From contig DASTLN010000226.1 of assembly GCA_035714925.1 (NCBI GenBank), positions 1-55,698 on the forward strand: a stretch of DNA of 55,698 bases. The letters run 5' to 3'. Each line of letters opens with the position of its first letter. Position 1 is the first letter of the stretch. Positions 3,366 through 20,725 of this stretch are shown piece after piece. The notes under the pieces were generated by a model, which was not told the origin of the DNA, ran no database searches, and was given only the letters and a program-made list of their open reading frames with translations. Source of the DNA: Dehalococcoidia bacterium (GTDB lineage: Bacteria; Chloroflexota; Dehalococcoidia; DSTF01; WHTK01). A program made the position numbers and the translations under genes.

Positions 3366-3824
3366 ATGCCAGACTTCTTCATTCCCGGCTTGCAGGACCC
3401 CCACGTAGTACACCACTTCGCGCTGGAGGTTCAGGGTGACGTCAAGGGGACGTTCCAGGAATGCACCGGTATGGAAACCAGCAACGAGGTTATCGAGCAC
3501 CGAGAGACCGACTTGCAGGGCAAGCAGCAACTGACGAAGATCCCCGGCCAGCTGAAGGTGGGCGACATCACGCTGAAGCGCGGCGTGACAGACGATACCT
3601 TCCTCTTCGACTGGCGCCAGCAGATCCTCAACGGCCAGGTCGACCTCGCCCGCAAGGACGGCTCGATCATCCTCCAGGACTCGATGGACCAGCAGGTCGC
3701 GCGGATCAACTTCACGCGGGCCTGGCCTCAGAAGTACAAGACCGGAGACTTCAAGGCCACCGAGAACAGCATCCTGATCGAGGAGGTTACCCTCGCAGTC
3801 GAGATGATTGAGAGAGCTCCGTGA
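3366..3824 (+). CDS. Tail tube protein (T4 gp19 / Afp1-like)
   Basis: It is 152 aa and directly follows the sheath gene. The FALEVQGDV.GTFQECTGMET pattern is typical of the conserved phage tail region tube family. RBS AAGGAG lies at 3352-3357. Confidence 0.85.
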   Translation: MPDFFIPGLQDPHVVHHFALEVQGDVKGTFQECTGMETSNEVIEHRETDLQGKQQLTKIPGQLKVGDITLKRGVTDDTFLFDWRQQILNGQVDLARKDGSIILQDSMDQQVARINFTRAWPQKYKTGDFKATENSILIEEVTLAVEMIERAP

Positions 3825-4216
3825 CCAATCTCCAGACGGAGTTCGACTTCATCCTGCCGAGAGGCTACGTCGACCGCAGCGGCACTGTGCACCGAAAGGG
3901 CCGCATGCGGTTGGCGACGGCGATGGACGAGATCACGCCGTTACGCGACCCGAGGGTGAGGCAGAACCAGGCTTACCACACGATCATCCTGCTGGCCCGC
4001 GTGGTCACCGAGTTGGGGACGCTGCCAGCGGCCGATACAGGTGTGATGGAAGGGCTGTTCACTGCCGACCTCGCGTTTCTGCAGGAGCTCTACCGCACAA
4101 AAAACGAGCTGGTGGGGCCGGACGCCGGAGAGGTACGGTGTCCCGCCTGCGGCGAGCACTTCGTCCCGCTGGCCGATACAGCGGAGGCCGTGGCAAACGC
4201 TGGCCCTTTAGTGTGA
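3821..4216 (+). CDS. P2 gpE-like tail assembly chaperone with C-terminal CxxC element
   Basis: The GTG start overlaps the tube stop (GTGA). The pattern GRMRLATAMDEI...ILLARVVTELGTL..ADTGVMEGLFTADLAFLQELY resembles the gpE / Phage_TAC_7 pattern (LR.pT.gd...lia.l.......i..L...Dy..Lq..y). Its position between the tube gene and the tape-measure-position gene also fits. Confidence 0.6.
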   Translation: MTNLQTEFDFILPRGYVDRSGTVHRKGRMRLATAMDEITPLRDPRVRQNQAYHTIILLARVVTELGTLPAADTGVMEGLFTADLAFLQELYRTKNELVGPDAGEVRCPACGEHFVPLADTAEAVANAGPLV

Positions 4217-4249
4217 GCGGACAGGAGGGCGAAGAACCCTGGCCTTTCC
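4204..4249 (+). promoter_or_regulatory. Candidate -1 programmed ribosomal frameshift signal: slippery heptamer C CCT TTA plus downstream stem-loop
   Basis: CCCTTTA at 4204-4210 is in the X XXY YYZ register of the 3821 frame, four codons before its stop. The A-site codon TTA is rare-looking for this GC-rich sequence. After an 8-nt spacer there is an imperfect stem-loop, GGACAGG-AGGG-cgaagaa-CCCT-gg-CCTTTCC, at 4219-4249. The -1 frame stays open to 4461. Confidence 0.45.
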
Positions 4250-4461
4250 AGATGTTGGGCCGGACCTGGGGCTCGGTTGGATACGACGAGTCGCAGATTT
4301 CGGAGGAGGTGGCGTACATCGCGTACCACTTCCACTGGCCGCTGGAGCAGATCCTGGAGCTGCAGCACTCCGACCGCCGTCGCTGGGCTCAGCTGATCAG
4401 CGGGATCAACGAGCGGATGAACGAGGAGGCCGGCAATCTGATGACGGCTTCCGGCCGGTAG
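4213..4461 (+). CDS. Small ORF: either an independent 69-82 aa protein or the E'-like -1 frameshift extension of the chaperone
   Basis: The frame is open from upstream. Candidate starts are GTG 4213 (GTGA overlap) or ATG 4252, and neither has a convincing SD. The translated tail GYDESQISEEVAYIAYHFHWPLEQILELQHSDRRRWAQLISGINERMNEE looks like a real folded peptide, unlike the Arg/Pro-rich upstream part of the same frame. Confidence 0.55.
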   Translation: MSGQEGEEPWPFQMLGRTWGSVGYDESQISEEVAYIAYHFHWPLEQILELQHSDRRRWAQLISGINERMNEEAGNLMTASGR

Positions 4462-9423: not shown

Positions 9424-9867
9424 ATGAACGACCACGCCAGCGGGAAAGAAATACTCGGTGTCGGATGGAACTTCCCGATCCGCGTCGACAGGCGACTGGA
9501 TACCGAGTTTGCGGCGCCGTACCGCGGCAGCGGCGGCATCGCCCTGTCGCGGCACGAGGAGGACATCGAGCAGGCGATCAGCATCGTGCTCTCGACGGCA
9601 AAGGGCGAACGCCGCATGCGGCCGACCTTCGGCTGCGACATCCATACGTTGGTCTACTCACCGGCCAACTCGTCGACGTTCAGTCTGATGCACGTCTACG
9701 TCGAGGAAGCGCTTCGGATGTGGGAGCCACGGATCGATGTCAGGGACGTGGGGATCACATCAGAAAACATCGACGGCCGGGTGGACATTACGGTCAGCTA
9801 CGAGGTCCGCACGACAAAGGATGCACGGACGCTGGTCTATCCCTTCTACATGTTAGGAGAGGACTAA
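9424..9867 (+). CDS. GPW/gp25 baseplate wedge protein (Afp9-like)
   Basis: GWNFPIRVD...IEQAISIVLSTAKGERRMRPTFGCDIHTLVYSP matches the gp25 family pattern. Confidence 0.88.
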   Translation: MNDHASGKEILGVGWNFPIRVDRRLDTEFAAPYRGSGGIALSRHEEDIEQAISIVLSTAKGERRMRPTFGCDIHTLVYSPANSSTFSLMHVYVEEALRMWEPRIDVRDVGITSENIDGRVDITVSYEVRTTKDARTLVYPFYMLGED

Positions 9868-9869
9868 TC

Positions 9870-11858
9870 ATGACGATGCAAGTGACGGAGCGGCGGCTGG
9901 ATTTGCGCGACTTCCAGGACATTGTCGACGAGGCGAAGCGCCTGATCCCTCGCTACTGCCCGGAGTGGACCGACCACAACGTCAGCGACCCCGGCGTGAC
10001 GCTTATCGAGCTGTTCGCCTGGATGACGGAGATGATCCTCTACCAACTCAATCGCCTGCCGGATGAGATGCACGAGCATTTCCTCGACCTGATCGGGGTG
10101 CAGCTCCGCCCGCCGGAGCCTGCTACGGTGGACATCACCTTTTACCTCTCGAAGCACCTGACGCAGCCGCTGGAGATCCCCACAGAAACGGAGATCGCAA
10201 CAGAGCGGACGGACGTTCAGGACGCAATCGTCTTCGCGACGACGAAGGCACTCAAGATGGAGCCGCCGCGGTTGGCGGGCCTGCGGGCCTGGCGCGAGGG
10301 CCAAGGCTTCGAAGACTACATGCCCTATGTCGCCAGCGGGCTGGTCGACGCGCCGATCTTCAACCAGGAGCCGGTCGACGGCGACGCGCTTTATATCGGC
10401 CTGCAGGGCGACCTCGGGGGCTCTAGCCTGGCGTTGCGCCTGGAGTGCCGAGAGCTCGAAGGCGTACACATCGACCCGAAAAATCCGCCCCTCGAGTGGG
10501 AGTACTGGTCCGCGAGCACGCAGATGTGGACACCGTTGCGGGTGTTGCACCAGTCGGGTACGGGACGGCTGCGTGAGCCGATGACGACCGATCCGACGCA
10601 TGGTCTCAACCGCGATGGCGACGTCTTCGTGAACATCCCCGTCGACTCTGCGCCGCGGGCGATCGATGGTATTGAGGCGACGTGGCTCCGCATTCGCTAC
10701 GTGCAAGAGGAAGGCCCCGGCTATACGGCATCTCCACGAATAACGGGCCTGCGTGCCGACCGCATCGGTGGGACCGTGACGGCGCGCCAGTCACAGCGAA
10801 TCAACGAGCTCGTGCTGGGCAAAGCCTCTGGAGAGCCCGGCGACCGCTTCACCGTGGCGCAGCGACCGATTTTGCGCAGCCGTGAACCGCACGTCATCGA
10901 GGCGAGATTAGGGGAAGACGTCACGACGTGGGTGGAGGTCGAAGACTTCTCGCTGTCCGGCGAGAGCGACCGGCACTTCATGATCCACTATCCCAGTGGC
11001 GAGATCCGCTTCGGCCCCGGCATCCGTTCCCGCGATGGTACCGAGCGTCAGCACGGCGCCGTGCCGCGAACCGGCGCTGACCTCGTGCTGCTGACCTACT
11101 ACACAGGCGGCGGCACGCGCGGCAACGTCGGCGAGCGGACGATCACGCAGATGAAGACCTCGATCCGGTACATCTCCGGCGTGACGAACTACGCACCGTC
11201 GATCGGTGGCCTGGACGAGGAGACGATCGGCGAAGCGAAGCTGCGCGGCGTGGCCGAGCTGAAGCACCCGGTGACGGCGGTAACCCGCGAGGACTTCGAG
11301 CTGCTGGCCGCGCAGACTCCCGGCGTGGGCGGTGCACGCTGCATTGCTCCCGGCGAAACGGGCGGCACGCCAGGCGTAATCCGGCTGCTGCTTCTACCCG
11401 ATCTCCCCGGACCGGACGTGGAGCTGACTCCGGAGCTAATGGTGCCCTCGCCTGCGCTGCTGCAGGCCGTGGGCGAGGTTGTCGAACAGCGGCGGAGCCT
11501 GGGCACGGTAGTCGAGATGGCGCCTGTGTCCGTCGTCTGGACGGAAATCGATGCGCACATCTACGTCAACCGCGGCATCGACGTCGACGAGGCGCAGAAG
11601 ATAGCAGAGGAGCGGCTACGGCGCCTGATGCACCCCACGATCGGTGGCGTGCAGGGCCAAGGCCTGTCCTTCGGCGGCGCTATCACGATGTCGCAGATCG
11701 CCGGGTCGCTGCAAAGCGTACAGGGCGTCGTCTACGTGGAGCGGGTGCTGTTGCGGCGGCAAGGAGACCCGGCGGAGCAGACGCGTATCCAGCCCTCGCC
11801 CGACTCCGTGCTGGCGCTGGGCCGCTGCTACGTCCTGGCCGAGGTCTTGGAGGACTGA
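9870..11858 (+). CDS. Baseplate J-like protein (Afp11 / P2 gpJ-like)
   Basis: ATG at 9870 follows AGGAGAGGA. The upstream 135 codons of the track ORF overlap the gp25 gene and are Arg-rich noise. The N-terminus is FQDIVDEAKRLIPRYCPEWTDHNVSDPGVTLIELFAWMTEMILYQLNRLPD, and a C-terminal TREDFE block is present. Confidence 0.88.
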   Translation: MTMQVTERRLDLRDFQDIVDEAKRLIPRYCPEWTDHNVSDPGVTLIELFAWMTEMILYQLNRLPDEMHEHFLDLIGVQLRPPEPATVDITFYLSKHLTQPLEIPTETEIATERTDVQDAIVFATTKALKMEPPRLAGLRAWREGQGFEDYMPYVASGLVDAPIFNQEPVDGDALYIGLQGDLGGSSLALRLECRELEGVHIDPKNPPLEWEYWSASTQMWTPLRVLHQSGTGRLREPMTTDPTHGLNRDGDVFVNIPVDSAPRAIDGIEATWLRIRYVQEEGPGYTASPRITGLRADRIGGTVTARQSQRINELVLGKASGEPGDRFTVAQRPILRSREPHVIEARLGEDVTTWVEVEDFSLSGESDRHFMIHYPSGEIRFGPGIRSRDGTERQHGAVPRTGADLVLLTYYTGGGTRGNVGERTITQMKTSIRYISGVTNYAPSIGGLDEETIGEAKLRGVAELKHPVTAVTREDFELLAAQTPGVGGARCIAPGETGGTPGVIRLLLLPDLPGPDVELTPELMVPSPALLQAVGEVVEQRRSLGTVVEMAPVSVVWTEIDAHIYVNRGIDVDEAQKIAEERLRRLMHPTIGGVQGQGLSFGGAITMSQIAGSLQSVQGVVYVERVLLRRQGDPAEQTRIQPSPDSVLALGRCYVLAEVLED

Positions 11859-12469
11859 TGACGGCCGAGCTTCTGCCGCAGACGTACACCAATGGCTTGT
11901 CCGGGAACGGCGGCCTCTATCCCGAGGATGAGGGCCTGGCCGCGACGCTGCCCAGCGCGTACCTGCGCTTCCTGCCCGCGATTTACTGGCAGGACTCGTT
12001 CATGGGGCGCTTCCTGCGTATTTTCGAGGACGTCCTCTCGCCGATTCAGACCAACGTGAGCCGGCGCGCCGACCAGTTCGACCCGGCGGTGGCGTCGCAG
12101 CCGCTTCTGCGCTTCATGGCGACATGGGTGGGCGCCAACGACCTCGGGGAGCTCCCAGAGCAGGAGCTTCGCGGCCTTGTACGGCGAACAGTGCGGCTGA
12201 ACCAGCTGCGCGGCACAAAAGCCGGCCTGCGGATGGCGCTGGAGACGATTACCGGCAAGCGTCCCTACATCACGGAGTACTCGGCCGGTCTGGTGCTGGG
12301 TGAGGATGCTGTGCTCGGCCTGAACACCTCCTTGCAAAGCGGCAGGCCGCTACAGATTCATGTTCTGTTCAATTGTGACGAAGATGAAGTAGACACCTCA
12401 TTAGCGCATGCTATAATTCGACGCTATAAACCCGCCGGAGCTGAATATAGCATTTCGTTCTTGACCTAG
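11858..12469 (+). CDS. P2 gpI-like tail/baseplate protein (N-terminal part of Afp12-type proteins)
   Basis: The start overlaps the upstream stop (TGATG). YLRFLPAIYWQDSFMGRFLRIFEDVLSPI and the C-terminal IIRRYKPAGAEYSISF fit the conserved phage-tail-region protein I family. Confidence 0.8.
   Translation: MTAELLPQTYTNGLSGNGGLYPEDEGLAATLPSAYLRFLPAIYWQDSFMGRFLRIFEDVLSPIQTNVSRRADQFDPAVASQPLLRFMATWVGANDLGELPEQELRGLVRRTVRLNQLRGTKAGLRMALETITGKRPYITEYSAGLVLGEDAVLGLNTSLQSGRPLQIHVLFNCDEDEVDTSLAHAIIRRYKPAGAEYSISFLT
12390..12417 (+). promoter_or_regulatory. Candidate sigma70-type internal promoter TAGACA-16 nt-TATAAT
   Basis: TAGACA at 12390-12395, a 16-nt spacer, then a perfect TATAAT at 12412-12417. 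It lies in a conspicuously AT-rich patch at the 3' end of the gpI-like gene, about 68 nt upstream of ATG 12485. Confidence 0.45.
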
Positions 12470-12484
12470 GGTTCGGACTTCCTG

Positions 12485-13687
12485 ATGAATCAGCTTCCGC
12501 TGCACTCGCCGATCAGGGTTCATCCATTCAGTGGCCTGGTAATAGACGTAGACACGTGGGCGACCGCTCACGACTACCATCGTCAACACCAGCAGCTTCA
12601 CTTACTCAGTCTGCACGGTACCGGAGTGGCCCAGGGTCTCGACGTCGTCTCGACGGACCCGCCGAGCGAGAGCGTGGTGGTGGAGGCGGGACTGGCGATC
12701 GATTCCTTCGGCAACACGATTATCGTGCCGGAGCGCCAGTATGTTGTCCTGGGCAACCAGGCCGGCCTTACGTACCTGGTGCTGGACTACGTCGAGGGCA
12801 TCCCGCCGTCCGACGGGAACAACCGCGATACGCGAGCCCGGGTTAAGGAAGACTTCAGGCTGCGCGCTGTACAGACGACGCCGGAGCCGCATTCGATCGA
12901 GCTGGCGCGCGTCGAGATGAAGAAGGGCGCGGCGCCGATCGTTGGAGCTGCCAACCCGTGGCTGCCGAAGGACAGCGAGCTGGACCTGAGGCACCGGCCT
13001 CGGCTCCACGTCACAGCGCCCAAGGTCATCAAAGTCGGGCTGGTCGTTCACGGCGACGAAGCGAGTCTCAGTGCGTCGCACCTGGCGGGGTTCCAGTTCC
13101 TGCTGCGCGAGATGGAGTACTGCGGCCTGCGAGCCGAGGTCACCAAGACGACCGACGCGGCGGTACCGGACGCCGACCTGCTTTACGTGACAGCGGATTC
13201 GGGCGCGACGGTACCCTCGGCGATGGTGAAGCGCCTCGGCGAGCGCGTGGCCGAGGGTGCCTGGATGTTCGTTGACCCCTGCGGCTCAGATACCAGCATG
13301 CTGGAGTCGTTCCGGACGCTGGTCAAACCGAAAACCGGCAGCGCGACTGAAGACCTCATGCTTGGGTCGCGCTTCGTGTTCGGCACGCCGCCTGAGGGCG
13401 CGTTCCCGACACGAAACATGACCTGGGGCGAGCGCGTTACGCTTTCGCCGAGGGACTACGGTTGCGCCTGGGCCGGTCGGCGAGGCGATCACGCCTTCCA
13501 GCGCGACGTGGTGCGCGCGGCACTTGAGTTCGGCGTTAACGCCGCGTTCTGTGTTGGACACTCGGGTGTAGGTCCGGAGACCGAACCCAGACGGTCGCGC
13601 GGCGCCGGCGGCAGCAACCCAGCTGCAGACAAGCCGGACGCCGAAGCGGAGTCGAAAGAGGAAGCCCAGGCGGCCGCAGAGTCATAG
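12485..13687 (+). CDS. CIS-associated protein with DUF4159-like C-terminal half
   Basis: This is a 400-aa ORF directly after the gpI-like gene. The segment LRHRPRL..VIKVGLVVHGDE..HLAGFQFLLREME...DADLLYVTADSGATVPSAMVKRLGERVAEGAWMFVDPCGSDTSMLESFR resembles the DUF4159 pattern recalled from memory (PFLYMTG..f.ls..e...Lr.Yl..GGfl.aDdc....fd.sfr). The N-terminal half is unassigned. Confidence 0.55.
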   Translation: MNQLPLHSPIRVHPFSGLVIDVDTWATAHDYHRQHQQLHLLSLHGTGVAQGLDVVSTDPPSESVVVEAGLAIDSFGNTIIVPERQYVVLGNQAGLTYLVLDYVEGIPPSDGNNRDTRARVKEDFRLRAVQTTPEPHSIELARVEMKKGAAPIVGAANPWLPKDSELDLRHRPRLHVTAPKVIKVGLVVHGDEASLSASHLAGFQFLLREMEYCGLRAEVTKTTDAAVPDADLLYVTADSGATVPSAMVKRLGERVAEGAWMFVDPCGSDTSMLESFRTLVKPKTGSATEDLMLGSRFVFGTPPEGAFPTRNMTWGERVTLSPRDYGCAWAGRRGDHAFQRDVVRAALEFGVNAAFCVGHSGVGPETEPRRSRGAGGSNPAADKPDAEAESKEEAQAAAES

Positions 13688-13751
13688 AATGGGGTTGCAG
13701 GACAGACTCATTGTCCATGCCCAGCAATGCTAAAGCTTAGTTGGTGAGCTG

Positions 13752-15554
13752 TTGCCGCAATCCCCTCTGATTCAGGTTTCGATCGAACCCGAAAGCCGGA
13801 GCGCGACCCCGGGCCAGCGGGTCGAATTCATCATTACCGCTGAAAACACGGGGAACGAGCCGCAGGCTCAGACCATCGAACTGATGGGCCTGCCGAACGC
13901 CTGGTACACGATCAACTTCGACACCAGCGAGCGCGCGCTGCCGGGCGAGAAACGCAGCGGGATGCTGGTCATCTCGGTACCGGCAACGATTAGCGGTGGC
14001 AGCTACGAATTCGACGTTGCGGTGCTGTCCGGCTCCGCCGAAAGCTCCGCCAGCGGCTCGATTGCGGTCGGCAGCGCGCTACCCGAACCGCCGCCCGCCG
14101 AATCACCGCCCGCTGAGCCCGCGCCCGACTCGGCGACCGTGGCGCCAGTGAAAACAGACGCGTTAGCGCCGATCGTGAGCCTCGAAGGCGGCCTGGTGAT
14201 ATGGCGTGGCCAGGGTTCCCCGGAGCGCAAGAGCCTGACGATCAGCAACCCGGGAAGCGTCGAGACGGAATACAACATCGAGGTTGAAGGCCTGGAGCAA
14301 GGTTGGTACACGGTGCTCAACCGCGCTCGTGTCGGACCGGGCCAGGAGCTGCAGACCGACTTTTCCATCCACCCGCCGAGCGGCGCACGGCAGCAGGATT
14401 ACCCCTTCCGCCTTAACGTCAGCGTGGACGGGCAATCCGGCCTGCGCAGCGAGGCGTCCGGCTGGCTGTCGATCCCTTCGGGCATGACATCGACTGCGCC
14501 GACGCCCACCACCTCACCCACACCGCCGGCCCCGCAGCCCGAACCGCCGCGGCCCTCGGCGCCGGAAGGCGTCTCGCCGCCGGACGTGGTGCTCTCGCCA
14601 CGGTCCAATTTCAGCTTCGGGCGCGCGGAGGCGGTGGCGCAGGCGCTGGTCACCGTTTATAACCGCAGCAAGGTCCGGGAGCGCTACCGCATCGTGGTCA
14701 ACGGCCTACCGGAAGACTGGTACCTGCTTTCGGACGCCGACATTCGGCTCGACCCGGGTGAGAACCGCCAGGTATCGCTTCGACTGGCGCCGATTACGGG
14801 TCCGAGTACGCCTGCCGGCGAGTACGAGTTCCTGGTCCGCGCCGTGCCGGACGGCATCGAGACCTACTTCGGCGAAGCCCTCGGCGTGCTTTCGATCGCG
14901 GGCGTGCCGAGATATGAGGCGCGCCTGGACCCGCTCGAGGCGGAAGGAACGCGCCGCAACTACAACGTTCGAGTCGAAAACACCGGCGATACCAGCCTGC
15001 AGCTGACGCTAAACGCCAGCGATCCGGAAGGGCGCTGCAAGTTCAAGGTCCCGCCGCCGCGCAACCTGGATCCGGGCCAAGTCGGGCTAATTCAGCTGAG
15101 GATAGGTGCGAAACGCAACGGCATCATCGGGGCGTCCGAAACGTTCGACTTCCGAGTCCGAATTGAGTCGGACGATGCAGAGGTCCAGACGAGCAAGGAC
15201 ACCTTCGACGGCCGCTTTGTCCATCATCCCAAGATCTCCTATCGCGCGGTGTTTATCGTCGCTTTCATGTGCGCGCTGGTGGGCCTGGTATTCCTTCTCG
15301 TCTGGGCCTTCTCACCGACTTTCGAGCGCGCCGGCGAATGGGTTGGCTGCCAGCTCGACCGGGACTACCGCCTGTCCAGCGACACACGGCTGCTACGCAA
15401 GGAGTCCTGCGATGGCAGGCCTCGAGAGCAAGAGCTGGACGAATGGCAACGCGAACGGCAGGAGAGCACCACGCGACTCTCGATTGATGACGAGGTAACC
15501 CTGGTCTACCCACCGGCCTTGGTCCCACCTGCAGCGATCTGGCGGGCCGACTAA
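13752..15554 (+). CDS. Membrane-anchored protein with four Ig-like (CARDB/NEW3-like) domains, no signal peptide, single C-proximal TM helix
   Basis: TTG start follows GGTGAG. Four roughly 100-aa modules carry the recurring G(L/I)P..WY motif, separated by Pro-rich linkers. The TM helix is AVFIVAFMCALVGLVFLLVWAF, followed by an approximately 80-aa Cys-containing tail. Confidence 0.7.
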   Translation: MPQSPLIQVSIEPESRSATPGQRVEFIITAENTGNEPQAQTIELMGLPNAWYTINFDTSERALPGEKRSGMLVISVPATISGGSYEFDVAVLSGSAESSASGSIAVGSALPEPPPAESPPAEPAPDSATVAPVKTDALAPIVSLEGGLVIWRGQGSPERKSLTISNPGSVETEYNIEVEGLEQGWYTVLNRARVGPGQELQTDFSIHPPSGARQQDYPFRLNVSVDGQSGLRSEASGWLSIPSGMTSTAPTPTTSPTPPAPQPEPPRPSAPEGVSPPDVVLSPRSNFSFGRAEAVAQALVTVYNRSKVRERYRIVVNGLPEDWYLLSDADIRLDPGENRQVSLRLAPITGPSTPAGEYEFLVRAVPDGIETYFGEALGVLSIAGVPRYEARLDPLEAEGTRRNYNVRVENTGDTSLQLTLNASDPEGRCKFKVPPPRNLDPGQVGLIQLRIGAKRNGIIGASETFDFRVRIESDDAEVQTSKDTFDGRFVHHPKISYRAVFIVAFMCALVGLVFLLVWAFSPTFERAGEWVGCQLDRDYRLSSDTRLLRKESCDGRPREQELDEWQRERQESTTRLSIDDEVTLVYPPALVPPAAIWRAD

Positions 15555-17566
15555 TGGTCCAGAGCACGCGTTCGCCCGATCTCCACCTCGACGTCTCACC
15601 CGACTCGCAGCGGGTGGAACGCGGCAACGAGGTCGTCTTCCTCGTCACCCTGGAGAACCGCGGCCGCGAAGCGCAGGCGCAGAGCCTGACGGTAAGCGGC
15701 CTACCCAGCGAGTGGTGCACCCTGGAGTTCGACACGCGTCGCCGCGTGTTTCCGGGAGAGCGCCGGACCGCGAGCCTGCTAGTCCAGGTGCCGGCAAGCG
15801 TCAACGCCGAGTACCACGATTTCGCGATCACAGCAAAAGCCGGCGCCGCCGAAAGCACCGCCGCCTGCAAGCTGGAGGTTACTGTACCGGGGCAGGTCGC
15901 ACCGCAGCCGCCCGCGCCGGAGCCTCCTCCTCCTACGGCACGACCGCCGGCGCTCTCTCTCAGCCCGACGGACGTGACCTGGCGCGGAGAGGCGCAGGGT
16001 GAGGAGACGCTGCGTCTGTCCGTGCGCAATGTGGGTACTGAAGATTCTGTCTACAACGTCTTGCTGGAGGGGCTGCCAGAACACTGGTACACGCTGGACG
16101 CACAAGTCAGCGTGCCCGGCGCCCGGGCTACCGACGTACAGCTCAAGATCAACCCGCCGGCACAAGCACGCCAGGGCAACTACACGCTGACAATCGCGGC
16201 GACGCTGCAGAGCGACTCCTCGGTACGCGGCGAGGTACGCGGCACGCTGACAATCGCGGCGCCGGAGCCCGTGTCGGCGCCGCAGCGCACGGTCGCGCCT
16301 GTCAGCATTCCCGAGACGCGAGAAGTGGAGCATACAGGCCCACCCGTAATGCCGCCGCGCGTGACGCTGGGACCGAGAACGACGTTTCGCTTCGGGCCGG
16401 GCGAGGTAACAGCCCAGGCGACGATCACTGTCGAAAACCAGAGCACCTCGATCGAGCGCTATCTAATCATGGTGCGCGGCATCGACGAGGGCTGGTACGA
16501 GATGGACAACCGCGAGGTGTCGCTCCAGCCCGGCGCGAGCATCGTCGTGCCTCTGCGACTCATGCCACGGACGGGTGGTCAGTTCCCGGCCGGCGACTAC
16601 AGCTTCCGGGTCCGTGTCGCGCCGTACCAGTTCCCCGATGCCTACGCGGAGCAGGTCGGCACGCTGGCAATCGCGGGGCAGGTCAGCTTCGACGCGCGCG
16701 TAACGCCCAACCGCCGCACGGGCCGCAAGGAGAAGTACAAGCTCACGCTGCTCAATACCGGCGGCCTCCCCTTCAGCCCCTGGCTGGAGGCATCCGACCC
16801 ACACGGTATGTGCAAGTTCAAGTACAACGCCCCGAGTAGCCTGGATGTCGGAGAGGAAGCCGTCGTGCCGATCTGGGTCGGCGCGACGCGTCAGGGCTTT
16901 GCCGGCCGGCCGCTAACGCTGGACTTCCGCCTGCGGGTCAGTCCCGCGGGAGGCGGCTCTTCATCGGCGCGCACGTTCGACGCGAGCTTCATCCACCAAC
17001 CCTTCCTGGGTCAGCGGATGTTCATCTGGTTTATGGGCCTGGCGGTTATCGCTGCGATCGTTGGGGTGCTGTTCGTGATCGGGTTCTCTAGTGTGGAGTC
17101 TGCCGTTACGTCAATCAAATGTGGATTCGACGACGACTACCAGGAGGTGCCGGGCGGCCCGGTGCTGGTCAAAGAGGAGTGTGGCGGCGCGCCGACGGTG
17201 TTACAGAAGGGTTTCTTCTCGCCATCCGGCGGTGGGCAGCTCACGACGCCGACCGTGGAACCCAGCGCCACGACGACGGTGACACCGGTGCCGGGTGAGA
17301 CCGAAGTGCCGGCGGGCGCCTGCGTCGCGGACGCAGACCTCGGTTTGGCCGTCAACGACCCGGTCAAGCTGCGAAACGACGCGGTCATCCGGGACGCGCC
17401 GGCGGGCAACGATACGGGCAGGCGAGGACTCAACCAGGACGGCGTAATCACGGCGGGTCCGGAGTGCACCAACAACCTGGTCTGGTGGGAAGTTGACGTC
17501 GCCGGCCAGAAGGGCTGGACGGCGGAGCAGACCGAGGACGAAATCCGGCTGATCCTGGAGCCCTAG
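15554..17566 (+). CDS. Paralog of the preceding protein: four Ig-like domains, TM helix, C-terminal SH3b-like domain
   Basis: The start overlaps the upstream stop (TAATG). It is collinear with the 13752 product (for example ASDPHGMCKFKY versus ASDPEGRCKFKV). The TM helix is MFIWFMGLAVIAAIVGVLFVIGF. The C-terminus VKLRNDAVIRDAPAGNDTGRRGLNQDGVITAGPECTNNLVWWEVDVAGQKGWTAE fits the bacterial SH3 pattern (W.eV...g..GW). Confidence 0.7.
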   Translation: MVQSTRSPDLHLDVSPDSQRVERGNEVVFLVTLENRGREAQAQSLTVSGLPSEWCTLEFDTRRRVFPGERRTASLLVQVPASVNAEYHDFAITAKAGAAESTAACKLEVTVPGQVAPQPPAPEPPPPTARPPALSLSPTDVTWRGEAQGEETLRLSVRNVGTEDSVYNVLLEGLPEHWYTLDAQVSVPGARATDVQLKINPPAQARQGNYTLTIAATLQSDSSVRGEVRGTLTIAAPEPVSAPQRTVAPVSIPETREVEHTGPPVMPPRVTLGPRTTFRFGPGEVTAQATITVENQSTSIERYLIMVRGIDEGWYEMDNREVSLQPGASIVVPLRLMPRTGGQFPAGDYSFRVRVAPYQFPDAYAEQVGTLAIAGQVSFDARVTPNRRTGRKEKYKLTLLNTGGLPFSPWLEASDPHGMCKFKYNAPSSLDVGEEAVVPIWVGATRQGFAGRPLTLDFRLRVSPAGGGSSSARTFDASFIHQPFLGQRMFIWFMGLAVIAAIVGVLFVIGFSSVESAVTSIKCGFDDDYQEVPGGPVLVKEECGGAPTVLQKGFFSPSGGGQLTTPTVEPSATTTVTPVPGETEVPAGACVADADLGLAVNDPVKLRNDAVIRDAPAGNDTGRRGLNQDGVITAGPECTNNLVWWEVDVAGQKGWTAEQTEDEIRLILEP

Positions 17567-18594
17567 CCTCCCAGCTCACGGCCGAGGCGTCGCGTCTCAT
17601 CTGACGGCTCGACGCCCAGTTCCCGGTCCAGGATCTCGACGCAGGCACGATACTGCTGCACCGCTAGCGACCGGTTCCCCATCATGAGATGAGCATTCAC
17701 GACCATGCAGTGCGCGCCCTCGTCGCAGGCATCTCGACCAAGGATCTGACCAGCATAATCCAGGACACCGGGCCAATCGCGCTGCGTGGTAGCCTCCGTA
17801 GCCAGCCAAGTCAGGGCCCGGTGCCAGGCGGCGTTGAAACGCCGACGCGGTTCGGCAGTCCATTCCTCGTAGGGATCACTGGACATCAGCTCGCCCCGGC
17901 AGAGGGCGACGGCATCGCGAAGATGCGCCCGCACGTTACGTTTGTCATCACGCTCCAGTGCCCGCCGCGCCTGGTCGAGGTGGCTCTGCAGGTCCCAGAG
18001 GTCCACGGCGACGTCTTCGAAGCCGATACCATAGAGGCCTTGGCGAACGGTAATCACGTCCGAGGCCTCCCGCGAGATCGCAGCAAGGCTGCTGCGGATC
18101 TGATAGATCGCGATGCTCAGGTTATTGGCGCCGCGGCCGGCGCGTGAGCCCGGCCAGAAGAGCTCGATGAGAATGTCCTTCGGGACCATGCGGCCCTTCT
18201 CCATGGCGAGGTAGGCAAGCAGGAGGCGCGCTTTGCGGCCGGGCCAGTTGGTCACGAGCCTTCCGCCGACGTGCGCCTCAAAGGGGCCGAGAAGCGACAG
18301 CGTCAGCCTGGGCTGCGTTGCCGGCGGCAAAGACGGGGCGGAATCGGCCATCGGCGCCGGTGCGGCGAGACGCTGGCTCACGGCATCGAGAATCTCGGTA
18401 CTCATCTCGCGCAGGCTGGTTAGCTCGACCTGGGAGCTCTCGGAAATCGCCTGCAGACGGTCGAGGCGTCCCAGGATGACCCGCAGCATATCTGGCTCGG
18501 CCGCCAACAGCGGCCTTTCGAGGATGAAGGGAAGCGCAGGTCGACCACCAAGCGTGACGGTAGGCGAAAGGATGGCTTCGCCGGGCATGTCCAA
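17563..18594 (-). CDS. SARP/AfsR-DnrI-type transcriptional regulator (winged helix plus BTAD)
   Basis: LSLLGPFEAHVGGRLVTNWPGRKARLLLAYLAMEKGRMVPKDILIELFWP is an OmpR/PhoB-type wHTH. The following DPYEEWTAEPRRRFNAAWHRAL...AVQQYRACVEILDRELGVEPSDET is a BTAD-type domain. Confidence 0.85.
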   Translation of the reverse strand: MDMPGEAILSPTVTLGGRPALPFILERPLLAAEPDMLRVILGRLDRLQAISESSQVELTSLREMSTEILDAVSQRLAAPAPMADSAPSLPPATQPRLTLSLLGPFEAHVGGRLVTNWPGRKARLLLAYLAMEKGRMVPKDILIELFWPGSRAGRGANNLSIAIYQIRSSLAAISREASDVITVRQGLYGIGFEDVAVDLWDLQSHLDQARRALERDDKRNVRAHLRDAVALCRGELMSSDPYEEWTAEPRRRFNAAWHRALTWLATEATTQRDWPGVLDYAGQILGRDACDEGAHCMVVNAHLMMGNRSLAVQQYRACVEILDRELGVEPSDETRRLGRELGG

Positions 18595-18790: not shown

Positions 18791-20725
18791 GTGGTAAAGA
18801 TCGGCGGCGGCATAGCAGCTCTCCTCATCGCGCTTCTGGTAGCGTTTTTTGTGTTCCGGGGAGACGACGAGGTGAGCGCTGAGGTCCGCTACGACGGCGT
18901 CCACCTCTGCGCCCCCAGCCAGCAGACCGCTGCGACGGCGCAGGCCCGGGCCGCATCGAGCGATGCGGAGCCGCGGGGCGAGGGAGCCGAAGCGCCGTTG
19001 TTCGCGCAAAACAGCGTCGCCTGGGGCCGAACCGAGTACGACCACGGCGCCCGCCAGGACGTCGGCTGCGGCCAGACGATTGAACAGTGCGGCTGTGCCA
19101 TGACCTCCGTGGCGACGGTCATGCAGCTATTCGAAGTGGTGTCCACCCCCAGCGGCGACTTCCTCGACCCGTCGGCCTTGAATACCTGGTTCAACCGGGA
19201 TGCGCAGCTCACGGAAGCGGGCTGGGTCAGCGCCGGATACGTCTACGGCAACGTCGTGTGGACCGCGATCAACGGCTGGAAGCCTGAACCCCCCGAGGAA
19301 GAGGAGCCGCAGGGCAGCAGCGAGATCGATCAATCGCTTTCGGAGCCGGATGAGGATGAATCGCTGGGGATCCTGGAAGAGACGGTGCTGGAGGGTGTGC
19401 GCTTCTCGGGTTGGGGCACCGGCAGCGAGGAGGAAATACGTGGCGAGCTGGAGGCGGGCCGGCCAATCGTGCTGGAGGTCCCGGGACACTACATCGCCGC
19501 GGTGGGCCTGCAGGGCGACACGATCATCATCAATGATCCTTACTACCGCGACCGCACCACGCTCGACGCCTACGAGGGTCGTGTCCTGAGCTCGCGCAGG
19601 TTCGAGCCGAGCCAGGACTTCCGGTCGATCCTGGTTACGGTACCGTCCAACCTGCGTATCGAGATACGCGACGAGGAAGGCCGGACCGTCGGCACGCTGG
19701 GCGGCGAAGACCCAGCCCTGGCGGAGGCCAATGCGGCCGATGAGATGGGCGTGATGCGTTACGAGGCAGGCTGGCGCGACCCGACCTGCACCGAGCGAGC
19801 GCCACCCGAGGGCAGCGGAGTCATCTCGGTCTTTATCCCATTTCCGGAGACAGGCACGTACAGCGTCGTGGTGATCAACCCTGACGGTGGCGACACAGCC
19901 GCGGCCGTGCACACGACAGACGTTAATGGAGTGCAGGGCGTTGATGTCCACGACGGCGGCTCTCGCATCGATTTCGAGATCGACTACGGCGCCGGCGAGC
20001 CGCCCGAGCCGCCCCCACCGACCACGCCGACGCCAACACCGACGCCGGCGCCAACCGACACGCCAACGCCGGGGCCGACGGATACGCCTGTGCCGGCATC
20101 GCTGACGCCGACTCCGACCGAAACGGCGACGCTAACGCCGACCCCTACCACCGTCCCACTGGACATCACCTCTTTCACGGTGGCACTCGATGAGGTCAGC
20201 CAGACGGATGCCGGCTGCCGAACGCGGCTTAACTGGACCGTGACCGGCAATCCGGCAGGGACGGTACGGCTGCTGAGGCAGTTTGGTGCGACCCTCAACA
20301 ACGGCACCGCGGAAGTATTGATTGAAGGCCCGCCGGGGCAGGGGGCGTATATCGACCCGTTCCGGGTTGGGCCCTGGACGTATCGCGTGCTGGCGACGTC
20401 CCCGCAACAGATCACATCTCAGACGCGAACGGTGCGGCCGATCTGCATTCGGTTGTTCTCGGCGAGCCAAGACTCACATAACTCCATCGCGGTGACGAGA
20501 CGCATCGAGGGAGAGGCACCGGCGACCTATACGCTCACACGGCTGGGAGCCGGTACCGTGAGTGCCGGCCAGGTCCTGTACGGGACGACGATCACGTTCA
20601 TCGATAGCCCGCTGCTGTGCGAGACGACTTACCAGTACACGCTGCAGGTCTTCGTGGAGAACAGGGTCGTTACGTCGAATACATTCTCAGCTACGACGGC
20701 TGATTGCCCGCCTGTCATCCTTTAG
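18791..20725 (+). CDS. Membrane-anchored C39-like (papain-fold) peptidase-domain protein with PT-rich linker and C-terminal Ig-like domains
   Basis: The N-terminal TM is IGGGIAALLIALLVAFFVF. Candidate catalytic residues are a Cys in GCGQTIEQCGCAMTSVATV and a His in GRPIVLEVPGHYIAAVG, followed by IINDPYY. The linker reads PPPTTPTPTPTPAPTDTPTPGPTDTP. Confidence 0.6.
   Translation: MVKIGGGIAALLIALLVAFFVFRGDDEVSAEVRYDGVHLCAPSQQTAATAQARAASSDAEPRGEGAEAPLFAQNSVAWGRTEYDHGARQDVGCGQTIEQCGCAMTSVATVMQLFEVVSTPSGDFLDPSALNTWFNRDAQLTEAGWVSAGYVYGNVVWTAINGWKPEPPEEEEPQGSSEIDQSLSEPDEDESLGILEETVLEGVRFSGWGTGSEEEIRGELEAGRPIVLEVPGHYIAAVGLQGDTIIINDPYYRDRTTLDAYEGRVLSSRRFEPSQDFRSILVTVPSNLRIEIRDEEGRTVGTLGGEDPALAEANAADEMGVMRYEAGWRDPTCTERAPPEGSGVISVFIPFPETGTYSVVVINPDGGDTAAAVHTTDVNGVQGVDVHDGGSRIDFEIDYGAGEPPEPPPPTTPTPTPTPAPTDTPTPGPTDTPVPASLTPTPTETATLTPTPTTVPLDITSFTVALDEVSQTDAGCRTRLNWTVTGNPAGTVRLLRQFGATLNNGTAEVLIEGPPGQGAYIDPFRVGPWTYRVLATSPQQITSQTRTVRPICIRLFSASQDSHNSIAVTRRIEGEAPATYTLTRLGAGTVSAGQVLYGTTITFIDSPLLCETTYQYTLQVFVENRVVTSNTFSATTADCPPVIL

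Follow-up and report, generated by a model that had tools for sequence, protein, structure and literature searches.

A conserved fibre-position module in a Dehalococcoidia contractile injection system: a DUF4159-headed adaptor and two membrane-anchored Ig-array proteins with a possible role in membrane docking

Introduction

Contractile injection systems (CISs) of the class IId type, known from Streptomyces and Chloroflexota, are assembled in the cytoplasm. For such systems of the Streptomyces/Chloroflexota/Deinococcota lineage, it is an open question how the particles come to the membrane and what triggers them; CisA (Sco4242) gives an answer for Actinobacteria only. It is a membrane adaptor of the Streptomyces CIS that is needed for firing, with an N-in/C-out topology shown experimentally (Casu et al. 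2025, PMC12237407); it is not an effector, yet it is toxic in Escherichia coli and co-purifies with particles, and a sensor or checkpoint role has been proposed for it (PMC12237407). Roseiflexus, of the Chloroflexota/Deinococcota IId clade, is reported to be without close cisA homologues (Gaisin et al. 2026). Here we analyze a 55,698-nt stretch of contig DASTLN010000226.1 from a Dehalococcoidia bacterium (assembly GCA_035714925.1; the whole stretch is called the window), in which three genes at positions 12485-17566, named A, B and C below, follow the baseplate wedge gene gpI of a IId-type CIS and form a candidate replacement module for CisA.

Other described systems also bear on this module. 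The Streptomyces proteins Sco4256-4258 have highly similar N termini, one transmembrane (TM) helix and a ricin or lectin C-terminus, and by HHpred their domain 1 (residues 2-215) resembles PapD/FimC, Cep192 and FAP47 and is followed by the TM helix at 219-255 (PMC10066040; PMC10020575). Deletion of sco4256-58 phenocopies loss of the CIS, the gene products proved toxic in E. coli, and the triple mutant has tubes with an empty lumen (PMC10066040); Sco4256 was detected in purified particles (Vladimirov 2023, PMC10020575), and several Sco4256-type homologs per genome were noted in Roseiflexus and cyanobacterial IId loci (Vladimirov et al., PMC10020575). In the thylakoid-anchored CIS (tCIS) of Anabaena, the anchors are Cis13 and Cis12 (Weiss et al. 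2022, PMC8894136). In the type VI secretion system (T6SS), the gene of TssK comes right after the TssG/gpI-type wedge gene, and TssK links the baseplate to the membrane complex.

Results

A conserved three-gene module behind gpI

The open reading frames (ORFs) of A (12485-13687, 400 aa), B (13752-15554, 600 aa) and C (15554-17566, 670 aa) all lie on the + strand and are maximal. A starts 15 nt after the end of gpI (11858-12469, +), a Cis12-type baseplate wedge gene (Pfam Tail_P2_I, E 2.4e-5) that is the conserved upstream neighbor of the module; A and B are spaced by 64 nt, and the stop codon of B and the start codon of C share 1 nt (TGATG). A preliminary description of this DNA, made without database searches, had reported three co-oriented genes directly behind a gpI-like gene, and its ORF coordinates are exact.

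To see the module in other genomes, we fetched six contexts via B and A homologs, twelve species-level genome loci via an A alignment, and nine metagenome loci via a B/C alignment (A2); the scan of the genome collection used two peptide patterns and therefore gave only 12 loci, which understates the size of the A family. All fetched B/C-family loci have the order (gp25-gpJ-gpI-)A-B-C as far as the contig reaches, with identical synteny in all nine metagenome loci, and no B/C homolog was found away from CIS genes among them. An A homolog lies directly after gpI in 17 of the 20 distinct fetched loci, and named homologs of the module proteins come almost all from Dehalococcoidia metagenome-assembled genomes. 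Co-occurrence of the trio with one CIS lineage, raised in the preliminary description as a point to be checked, has no counter-example among these loci, and the trio is supported as a conserved terminal module of this CIS lineage.

The module is simpler in distant Dehalococcoidia loci (L007, L017, L018, L019 and L020), where A is followed by a single shorter B-like protein with two or four immunoglobulin (Ig)-like modules, one TM helix and a Cys-containing tail, and without a signal peptide. In L007 and the loci of the remote A members (L020-L023), A comes right after gpI in CIS loci in every case; the gene after A varies, and encodes a B-like protein, a membrane protein containing a solute-binding-protein domain (with FHA/VWA neighbors), a methyltransferase, or an M23 peptidase.

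The only A loci without visible CIS context are L015 and L016. L015 has an A homolog (9785-11098) and a BTAD regulator, with no CIS genes within 10 kb upstream, and in L016 an A-family gene (316-1341) lies by a BTAD regulator on a 2.4-kb contig binned as Myxococcota. These genes may be remnants, or may represent a second context for the family.

Protein A is a fibre-position protein with a DUF4159-type head

The AlphaFold2 model of A (predicted local distance difference test, pLDDT, 82) has a beta-rich N-domain (residues 1-175; 12485..13009, +), a flavodoxin-like C-domain (180-360) and a disordered tail. The head, taken as residues 176-360 (13010..13564, +), is modeled at pLDDT >90; the acidic/Ala-rich tail (residues 361-400 with the stop codon; 13565..13687, +) is at pLDDT <50 and not conserved, and A homologs are mostly 362-371 aa long. 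As had been proposed, the second half of the 400-aa product is DUF4159-like: all 34 A-family members match DUF4159 (PF13709; best E 7.3e-10) and several carry it as a precomputed domain, although the window protein itself, at 17.8-20.1 bits, stays below the Pfam gathering threshold of 25.9.

The N-domain places A among known kinds of CIS part. The NCBIfam CIS13 family (NF053767) matches the N-domain of the window protein with an E-value of 1.1e-7 (model positions about 10-176) and that of all 34 A members (best 3.2e-14; 8.1e-16 for the L020 member). Only the N-domain aligns, the C-terminal half being DUF4159, and A scores 31.4 bits against the full-length CIS13 equivalog cut-off of 370. In a Foldseek search of the PDB with the A model, ten TssK chains are among the top 50 matches (probability 0.97-1.0, E about 5e-3); further matches are All3314/Cis19 of the Anabaena tCIS and a phi812 baseplate chain, and the C-domain matches flavodoxins. 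Against the BFVD viral structure library, the N-domain has 24 matches at E<=1e-3, many of them named tail fibre or receptor-binding protein (RBP). The A family profile (A1) aligns colinearly with residues 31-86 of Cis19 among PDB sequences, with a marginal E-value of 0.021, and beyond this match the search returned only NHL-repeat noise. The Pfam TssK family has no match in any of the 34 A members at E<=1, and the isolated N-half of A gives no match to Pfam.

The preliminary description had placed A outside the known CIS parts; this does not hold, given the matches of its N-domain to the CIS13 family and, in predicted fold, to TssK, Cis19 and the N-domains of phage RBPs or tail fibres. A is a fibre-position protein that keeps the baseplate-attachment domain and has a DUF4159 head in place of a fibre, and we class it as an adaptor of the Cis13/TssK type whose head is new. 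It is probably a trimer, since this type of N-domain attaches tail fibres, siphophage RBPs, TssK and Cis19 to the wedge. By its model and a weak sequence signal, the N-domain of A may share the fold class of TssK, Cis19 and the CIS13 family, and A is like TssK in gene position; it differs from TssK in its DUF4159 head, which is not the TssK C-terminal head, and from Cis19, which is a 1476-aa 'crown' protein.

The family is large. An exhaustive hidden Markov model (HMM) search with the A profile found 242 representatives of 50%-identity clusters at E<1e-30 and 994 at E<1e-10, mostly of 360-400 aa and aligned end to end, so that the family holds at least 242 clusters at 50% identity. A full-text literature search found no paper mentioning DUF4159 together with 'contractile injection'.

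The head has an invariant motif, SPRDYGCAWAG, and might be an enzyme or have kept a ligand pocket. Invariant head residues are H199, D264-x-C266-G267, and S321/D324/G326-C327-A328-W329, the last set within this motif; they recall the nucleophile-elbow/His arrangement of the GATase1/DJ-1 type.

Architecture of proteins B and C

B and C share 35% identity over 560 aa (E 2e-101), which bears out the earlier view that the 600- and 670-aa products are paralogs. Pfam finds NPCBM_assoc/NEW3 and FixG_C Ig-like domains in both. The AlphaFold2 model of C (from a 30-sequence alignment; mean pLDDT 83) has Ig beta-sandwiches at residues 10-110, 133-234, 269-373 and 379-481 (15581..16996, +), a TM helix at 487-510 (17012..17083, +; KD19 hydropathy 2.82), and then a short helix, a Pro/Thr-rich stretch that is disordered, and a small beta-barrel modeled with confidence at 603-657. 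The four Ig-like modules of B (about residues 5-490; 13764..15221, +) are colinear with those of C and have the FixG_C and NPCBM_assoc matches; the juxtamembrane motif and single TM helix follow at residues 485-521 (15204..15314, +; KD19 hydropathy 3.08). Four modules per protein, as first described, agree with Pfam and the model; the G(L/I)x..W(Y/C) motif said to mark each module occurs in Ig1, Ig2 and Ig3 only, and the Pro-rich linkers are confined to the Ig1/Ig2 and Ig2/Ig3 junctions, with Ig3 and Ig4 contiguous.

Conservation is highest next to the membrane. Among C orthologs, identity is 65-72% in Ig3 and Ig4 and 44-54% in Ig1 and Ig2, and the juxtamembrane motif F-D-x-R-F-[VI]-H-x-P before the TM helix has its H and P invariant in 30 sequences. 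By sequence comparison, Ig3-Ig4-TM is the most conserved part and the part common across phyla (see below), and the distal Ig modules with their linkers look like spacers that extend the reach. The best Foldseek matches of the C model are intracellular Ig arrays of the hydin/CFAP/FAP47 type, including 7sqc_T0 (FAP47), and Foldseek and Pfam results on C and its relatives also point to Cep192_D3 and CFAP65 Ig.

After the TM helix, B ends in a short tail that is predicted to be extracytoplasmic and carries a Cys pair (W-x-G-C ... C-G-G in alignment A2; 15315..15551, +). C has the same Cys-pair motif, likewise predicted to lie outside (residues 513-548; 17090..17197, +; C523 invariant), and then, after a Pro/Thr-rich linker, an SH3b-like beta-barrel (residues 599-662; 17348..17539, +; pLDDT >90). 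The SH3b-like character that had been read into the C tail holds for the modeled barrel and for the C orthologs P0090 and P0100, which pass SH3_3 (PF08239) at the aligned position with 33.3 and 31.6 bits (gathering threshold 27), but is not matched by the window tail itself. With Pfam and NCBIfam we found no toxin or enzyme domain in B or C and could recognize no kinase, HTH or anti-sigma output domain; the NCBIfam results on B and C are sub-threshold noise only.

Predicted topology of B and C

An N-terminal hydrophobic segment is absent in all 41 homologs (maximum KD19 1.25), and B and C each have a single strong TM segment, preceded by a folded region of ~480 aa. The absence of a signal peptide and the one TM helix near the C-terminus were thus described correctly at the outset, the ORFs being maximal. 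In the 15-aa flanks of the TM helix, the mean net charge over the 41 homologs is +1.8 on the N-side and -1.2 on the C-side; it is higher on the N-side in 37 of 41 and reversed in none, so the charge bias noted earlier in the window proteins holds in their relatives, as a conserved bias of related sequences and not as 41 independent trials. Cys residues in the tail are always even in number (B-type proteins have 2 and C-type proteins have 4 or 6, including the invariant Cys after the TM helix), with exactly two in the 17 full-length B homologs scored; Cys counts in the Ig region are odd and variable.

Fusions to signaling domains point the same way. In the IId CIS of the Deinococcus taeanensis plasmid NZ_CP083458.1 (L027), the gene after gpI (12101-16942) encodes a 1613-aa protein with the order Pkinase (10-273), FHA (340-395), Ig unit (444-564; E 1.6e-10 to the B/C profile), a single TM helix at ~700, and ~900 more residues. 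In P0022, a metagenomic protein, the order is Pkinase, FHA (271-337), 2xIg unit (369-585; 68 bits), TM helix at 604 and TSP3 repeats. Kinase and FHA domains reside in the cytoplasm, and with no TM helix between them and the Ig part, the Ig unit of these two proteins should be cytoplasmic as well. SH3b domains are characteristically extracytoplasmic. Together, the charge bias, the even tail Cys, the missing signal peptide and the kinase-FHA-Ig-TM relatives support the predicted N-in/C-out topology, in which the Ig arrays of both proteins are cytoplasmic and the Cys/SH3b tail lies outside, as the preliminary description had it.

The same evidence bears on another idea, by which B and C would be ordinary surface proteins with Ig repeats of the NEW3/CARDB type, their array exposed outside the cell and the CIS adjacency incidental. 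Domains such as NPCBM_assoc/NEW3, FixG_C and DUF11-type Ig are mostly extracytoplasmic in other proteins, and some homologs have the JGI label 'uncharacterized membrane protein'. We consider this idea highly improbable, given the 41 homologs without a signal peptide in maximal ORFs, the charge bias, the paired tail Cys and the kinase-FHA-Ig-TM fusions, and also the strict linkage to CIS baseplate genes in all loci, which extends to Actinobacteria. We rejected sortase, exosortase and tail-anchor readings of the TM helix, since the tail behind it has 48-169 aa and is conserved, and there is no N-terminal signal.

L021 and L022 have FHA, VWA and periplasmic-binding-protein genes at the place where L027 has the kinase-FHA-Ig-TM gene. 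These arrangements resemble threonine-phosphorylation control of the T6SS.

B and C are related to 2xIg-TM proteins of actinobacterial CIS clusters

According to a tblastn search of 72,556 plasmids with C, only six records have a match. Four of the six are actinobacterial megaplasmids, representing three distinct replicons (Kitasatospora, S. cadmiisoli and S. cattleya pSCATT, the last deposited twice), and each of these four records also carries an IId-type gpJ / IId CIS. The B/C profile gives 80.5 bits for the Kitasatospora protein (Kit_476), 82.1 for that of S. cadmiisoli (Scad_460), 81.6 for that of pSCATT and 70.2 for a 'hydrolase' encoded among the CIS genes of S. clavuligerus; in the alignments, the stretch of the profile from about 285 to 519, which covers Ig3, Ig4, the juxtamembrane motif and the TM helix, pairs with residues of about 17-253 of the actinobacterial proteins. 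In BLASTP, the S. clavuligerus protein matches B at 3.9e-11 and C at 6.7e-8, and a 13-sequence alignment of the core is colinear, with invariant N, W, N and G positions. In the actinobacterial proteins, two Ig modules are followed by a TM helix (about 220-240), a linker of low complexity and a C-terminal domain, and the Kitasatospora member matches Pfam Cep192_D3. B and C had first been taken for undescribed proteins, different from those of other membrane-associated CISs; the homology of their Ig3-Ig4-TM core to actinobacterial IId 2xIg-TM proteins, at 70-82 bits, shows otherwise.

It is highly likely, though not certain, that B and C belong to the Sco4256-4258 family as members with four Ig modules. 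The link is drawn through S. clavuligerus, which is listed as positive for Sco4256-58 homologs (Casu 2023, PMC10066040), through the 'hydrolytic' label of Sco4256 (PMC10020575), which is like the 'hydrolase' label of the S. clavuligerus protein, and through the identical architecture. Both sets of proteins are tandem paralogs in IId CIS clusters, with N-terminal PapD/Cep192/FAP47-like Ig modules, one TM helix directly after them and a variable wall- or carbohydrate-binding C-terminus. They differ in that B and C have four Ig modules and not two, the extra Ig1 and Ig2 being joined by Pro-rich linkers; in the C-terminus, which is a Cys-pair motif with or without SH3b in B and C (B has the Cys motif only) and ricin or lectin in Sco4256-4258; and in gene position, since B and C are in the fibre position after gpI and A, whereas the Sco genes are near the sheath and ATPase genes. 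On the Kitasatospora plasmid NZ_CP108248.1 (L024, 6916-10386), gpI, a CisA-like gene and the 2xIg-TM gene are adjacent in that order, so that 2xIg-TM proteins occur in the fibre position in an actinomycete, too. The pSCATT 2xIg-TM protein adjoins SCATT_p13670, inside the IId region of Vladimirov et al., and may be the product of a gene other than AEW99800.1, their pSCATT homolog of Sco4256.

This relationship brings in a different reading of B and C, as CIS effectors or cargo, i.e. toxins acting on the membrane or directed at the wall that would be loaded on or in the particle and set free at contraction, killing the producer cell, with A as an unrelated fibre-position adaptor. The actinobacterial family has been published as effectors, in view of the E. 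coli toxicity, the empty lumen of the delta-sco4256-58 mutant and its CIS-null phenotype (PMC10066040), Sco4256 was found in purified particles (PMC10020575), and ricin, lectin and SH3b C-termini would suit envelope-targeting toxins. The lumen of a CIS tube is narrow and unlikely to house a protein of 600-670 aa whose four Ig domains are folded and whose TM helix is strongly hydrophobic. Conservation is highest in the membrane-proximal Ig3-Ig4-TM and not in the C-terminus, and the fusion of the Ig unit to kinase and FHA domains in CIS-linked relatives fits a resident membrane protein better. We rate the effector reading below a docking role because of the size, the hydrophobic helix, the lack of a toxin domain, the signaling-domain fusions and the case of CisA, a non-effector that is equally toxic in E. 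coli and also co-purified; on balance it seems doubtful to us.

A possible docking module for the CIS baseplate

We interpret A-B-C as an accessory fibre-position module of a class IId-type CIS that may serve membrane/wall docking or act as a trigger, a reading on which our confidence is evenly poised. In the model that we infer, A would be a baseplate-peripheral adaptor with its N-domain on the wedge. B and C would each present a stalk of four Ig modules (~480 residues) in the cytoplasm and a disulfide-type Cys motif outside, with a wall-binding SH3b-like domain in C, and could so form a fixed membrane site that is tied to, or reads, the cell wall. The cytoplasmic stalks would capture the CIS baseplate, either via the head of A or directly; capture would orient the particle onto the membrane and license firing, leading to envelope puncture and cell death. 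A is the obvious candidate for the connecting piece, as TssK is in the T6SS, since it combines a baseplate-attachment domain and a globular head and its gene lies between gpI and B.

Docking of this kind would have parallels in CisA of Streptomyces, in Cis13/Cis12 of Anabaena and in TssK with the TssJLM complex of the T6SS. B and C are like CisA in their predicted bitopic N-in/C-out layout, with a large cytoplasmic part and an extracytoplasmic domain (about 150 aa in CisA), and in being encoded downstream of the baseplate wedge genes; both are proposed to bring the baseplate to the membrane. The cytoplasmic part of CisA is disordered with a Zn-ribbon, whereas that of B and C is a folded Ig array, and its outer domain is discoidin- or solute-binding-like, whereas that of C is SH3b-like. 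On the best reading, the B/C module would be functionally analogous to CisA without being homologous to it. We rejected a place for B and C in the CisA family, as the CisA-like proteins Kit_662 and Scla_584, which have Zn-ribbon and NADase/discoidin domains, lack similarity to A, B or C. As in Anabaena, where a fibre-position product with a TM helix anchors the intracellular CIS to a membrane, the module is encoded in the fibre position; in Anabaena the TM helix is within the fibre-like protein, whereas here the baseplate-binding A and the TM proteins B and C are separate polypeptides, and the membrane target is presumably the cytoplasmic membrane and not the thylakoid.

Several points weigh against such a role. 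The likeness of A to TssK/Cis19 is weak (E ~5e-3, query-normalised TM-score ~0.25, root-mean-square deviation ~8 A, HMM E 0.02), and a contact between A and B/C is something we infer from the gene arrangement and the domains. A occurs without B-like neighbors in L021-L023, and B-like proteins occur without A in Actinobacteria, so an obligate contact between the two is not implied. The homology of B and C is to actinobacterial CIS-cluster proteins, with Sco4256, Sco4257 and Sco4258 compared by their published description, and these Streptomyces relatives have been read as effectors on the strength of E. coli toxicity and the empty lumen of the triple mutant (PMC10066040). The tail of the window C protein gives no Pfam match and reaches no SH3 threshold, and the predicted wall-binding by the SH3b-like domain presupposes peptidoglycan in the host. 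CIS particles of the Roseiflexus and Deinococcota lineage were seen unattached in the cytoplasm; Streptomyces particles are likewise free there, and their membrane contact is thought to be transient (PMC12237407).

A broader proposal, which we make tentatively and which seems to us more apt to fail than to hold, is that the members of the 2xIg-TM family, Sco4256-4258 among them, would not be effectors but would serve cytoplasmic IId CISs as their resident receptor in the membrane. In Dehalococcoidia the receptor would have been extended to four Ig modules and combined with a TssK-like, DUF4159-headed adaptor, so that a T6SS-like link from baseplate to membrane to wall would have evolved independently in a CisA-less Chloroflexota lineage. 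The kinds of part are already known, i.e. the Sco4256-58 family for B and C and the Cis13/TssK type for A; new here are the argument for a cytoplasmic Ig part and the recognition of a large family of DUF4159-headed adaptors after gpI. The kinase/FHA fusions are sequence-based evidence that the Ig part of the Sco4256-58 family may face the cytoplasm, and they bear on whether these proteins are effectors or a docking site. The candidate replacement for CisA, the predicted Ig orientation and the adaptor family are testable in Streptomyces, by genetics and established electron cryotomography.

Expression of the module and a possible sensor role

A sigma-70-like promoter motif, TAGACA-N16-(TGC)TATAAT (12390..12417, +; 11/12 consensus), lies in the 3' end of gpI and is a candidate internal promoter of A-B-C. 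The A start codon comes 67 nt after the end of its -10 element, and a -10 is kept 66-81 nt from the A start in eight main-clade loci, as TATAAT in L001, L002, L003, L006, L008, L010 and L011 and as TACAAT in L012; it is absent from the divergent loci. TATAAT is encoded by Ala-Ile-Ile codons, using AT-rich Ile codons that are rare in this 65% G+C genome. A terminator scan from gpI to C found 7 sites, a number within chance (4.0 +/- 1.8 in shuffles), all inside coding sequence and none between gpI and A. Convergent to C is the gene of a SARP-type regulator (17563..18594, -; Pfam Trans_reg_C and BTAD), and a SARP regulator also comes after C in L001, L002, L003, L006, L008, L011 and L029-L036. 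With the conserved promoter-like site and the conserved regulator, A-B-C would be expressible apart from the structural operon, which suggests that the module is under its own expression control.

These features could also be taken to mean that B and C are envelope-stress sensors or signal transducers that control CIS expression or firing without being a physical dock, the outside Cys/SH3b part reading the state of the wall and the inside Ig array recruiting regulators. The SARP gene by C, the promoter-like site upstream of A, the relatives with an Ig unit fused to a Ser/Thr kinase and FHA, the FHA, VWA and periplasmic-binding-protein genes in the same position of other A loci, and the sensor/checkpoint role proposed for CisA all fit such a function. 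The absence of a recognizable output domain in B and C does not, and two paralogs with long multi-Ig stalks suggest structural reach over signaling, so that we think it unlikely that sensing without docking is the whole role. Sensing and docking are mutually compatible.

The S. clavuligerus IId cluster also has SARP/BTAD regulators, two in number (L028, 6977-8974 and 24589-27291), and this suggests that IId CISs of different phyla share a mode of regulation.

Neighboring genes in the window

Upstream of the module and on the same strand are a truncated eCIS_core gene, a Pvc16_N cap gene, the sheath gene, two gp19-type tube genes and the gene of a 627-aa protein with no family match; the set continues with CIS_tube+LysM, VgrG, gp25, gpJ (from about 9870) and gpI. 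We found no gene for an AAA ATPase of the Afp15/Cis15 type within the CIS cluster (1-20725), nor in the ten larger ORFs that were scanned downstream. The ATPase and any further cluster genes are probably upstream of the window, since the window opens inside the eCIS_core (DUF4157) gene (1-476). Between the tube genes, a 131-aa ORF (3821-4216, +) has an MJ0042-type zinc-ribbon at residues 91-114 (NCBIfam E 1.9e-4, at the cut-off); this gene call is uncertain, as it overlaps an alternative 217-aa ORF at 3808-4461.

Further downstream, beyond the SARP region, the genes have unrelated housekeeping or transport functions, which puts the end of the CIS cluster in this region. Next to the SARP gene is that of a 644-aa protein with a C39-like peptidase domain (18791..20725, +; weak Peptidase_C39_2 match), which is anchored in the membrane at its N-terminus and has a Pro/Thr-rich linker and, toward the C-terminus, beta-rich domains. 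A homolog follows the BTAD/SARP gene in eight loci (including L008, L011, L029-L032 and L034), and this protein may be part of the module, perhaps as a peptidase that acts on the wall from outside the cytoplasm.

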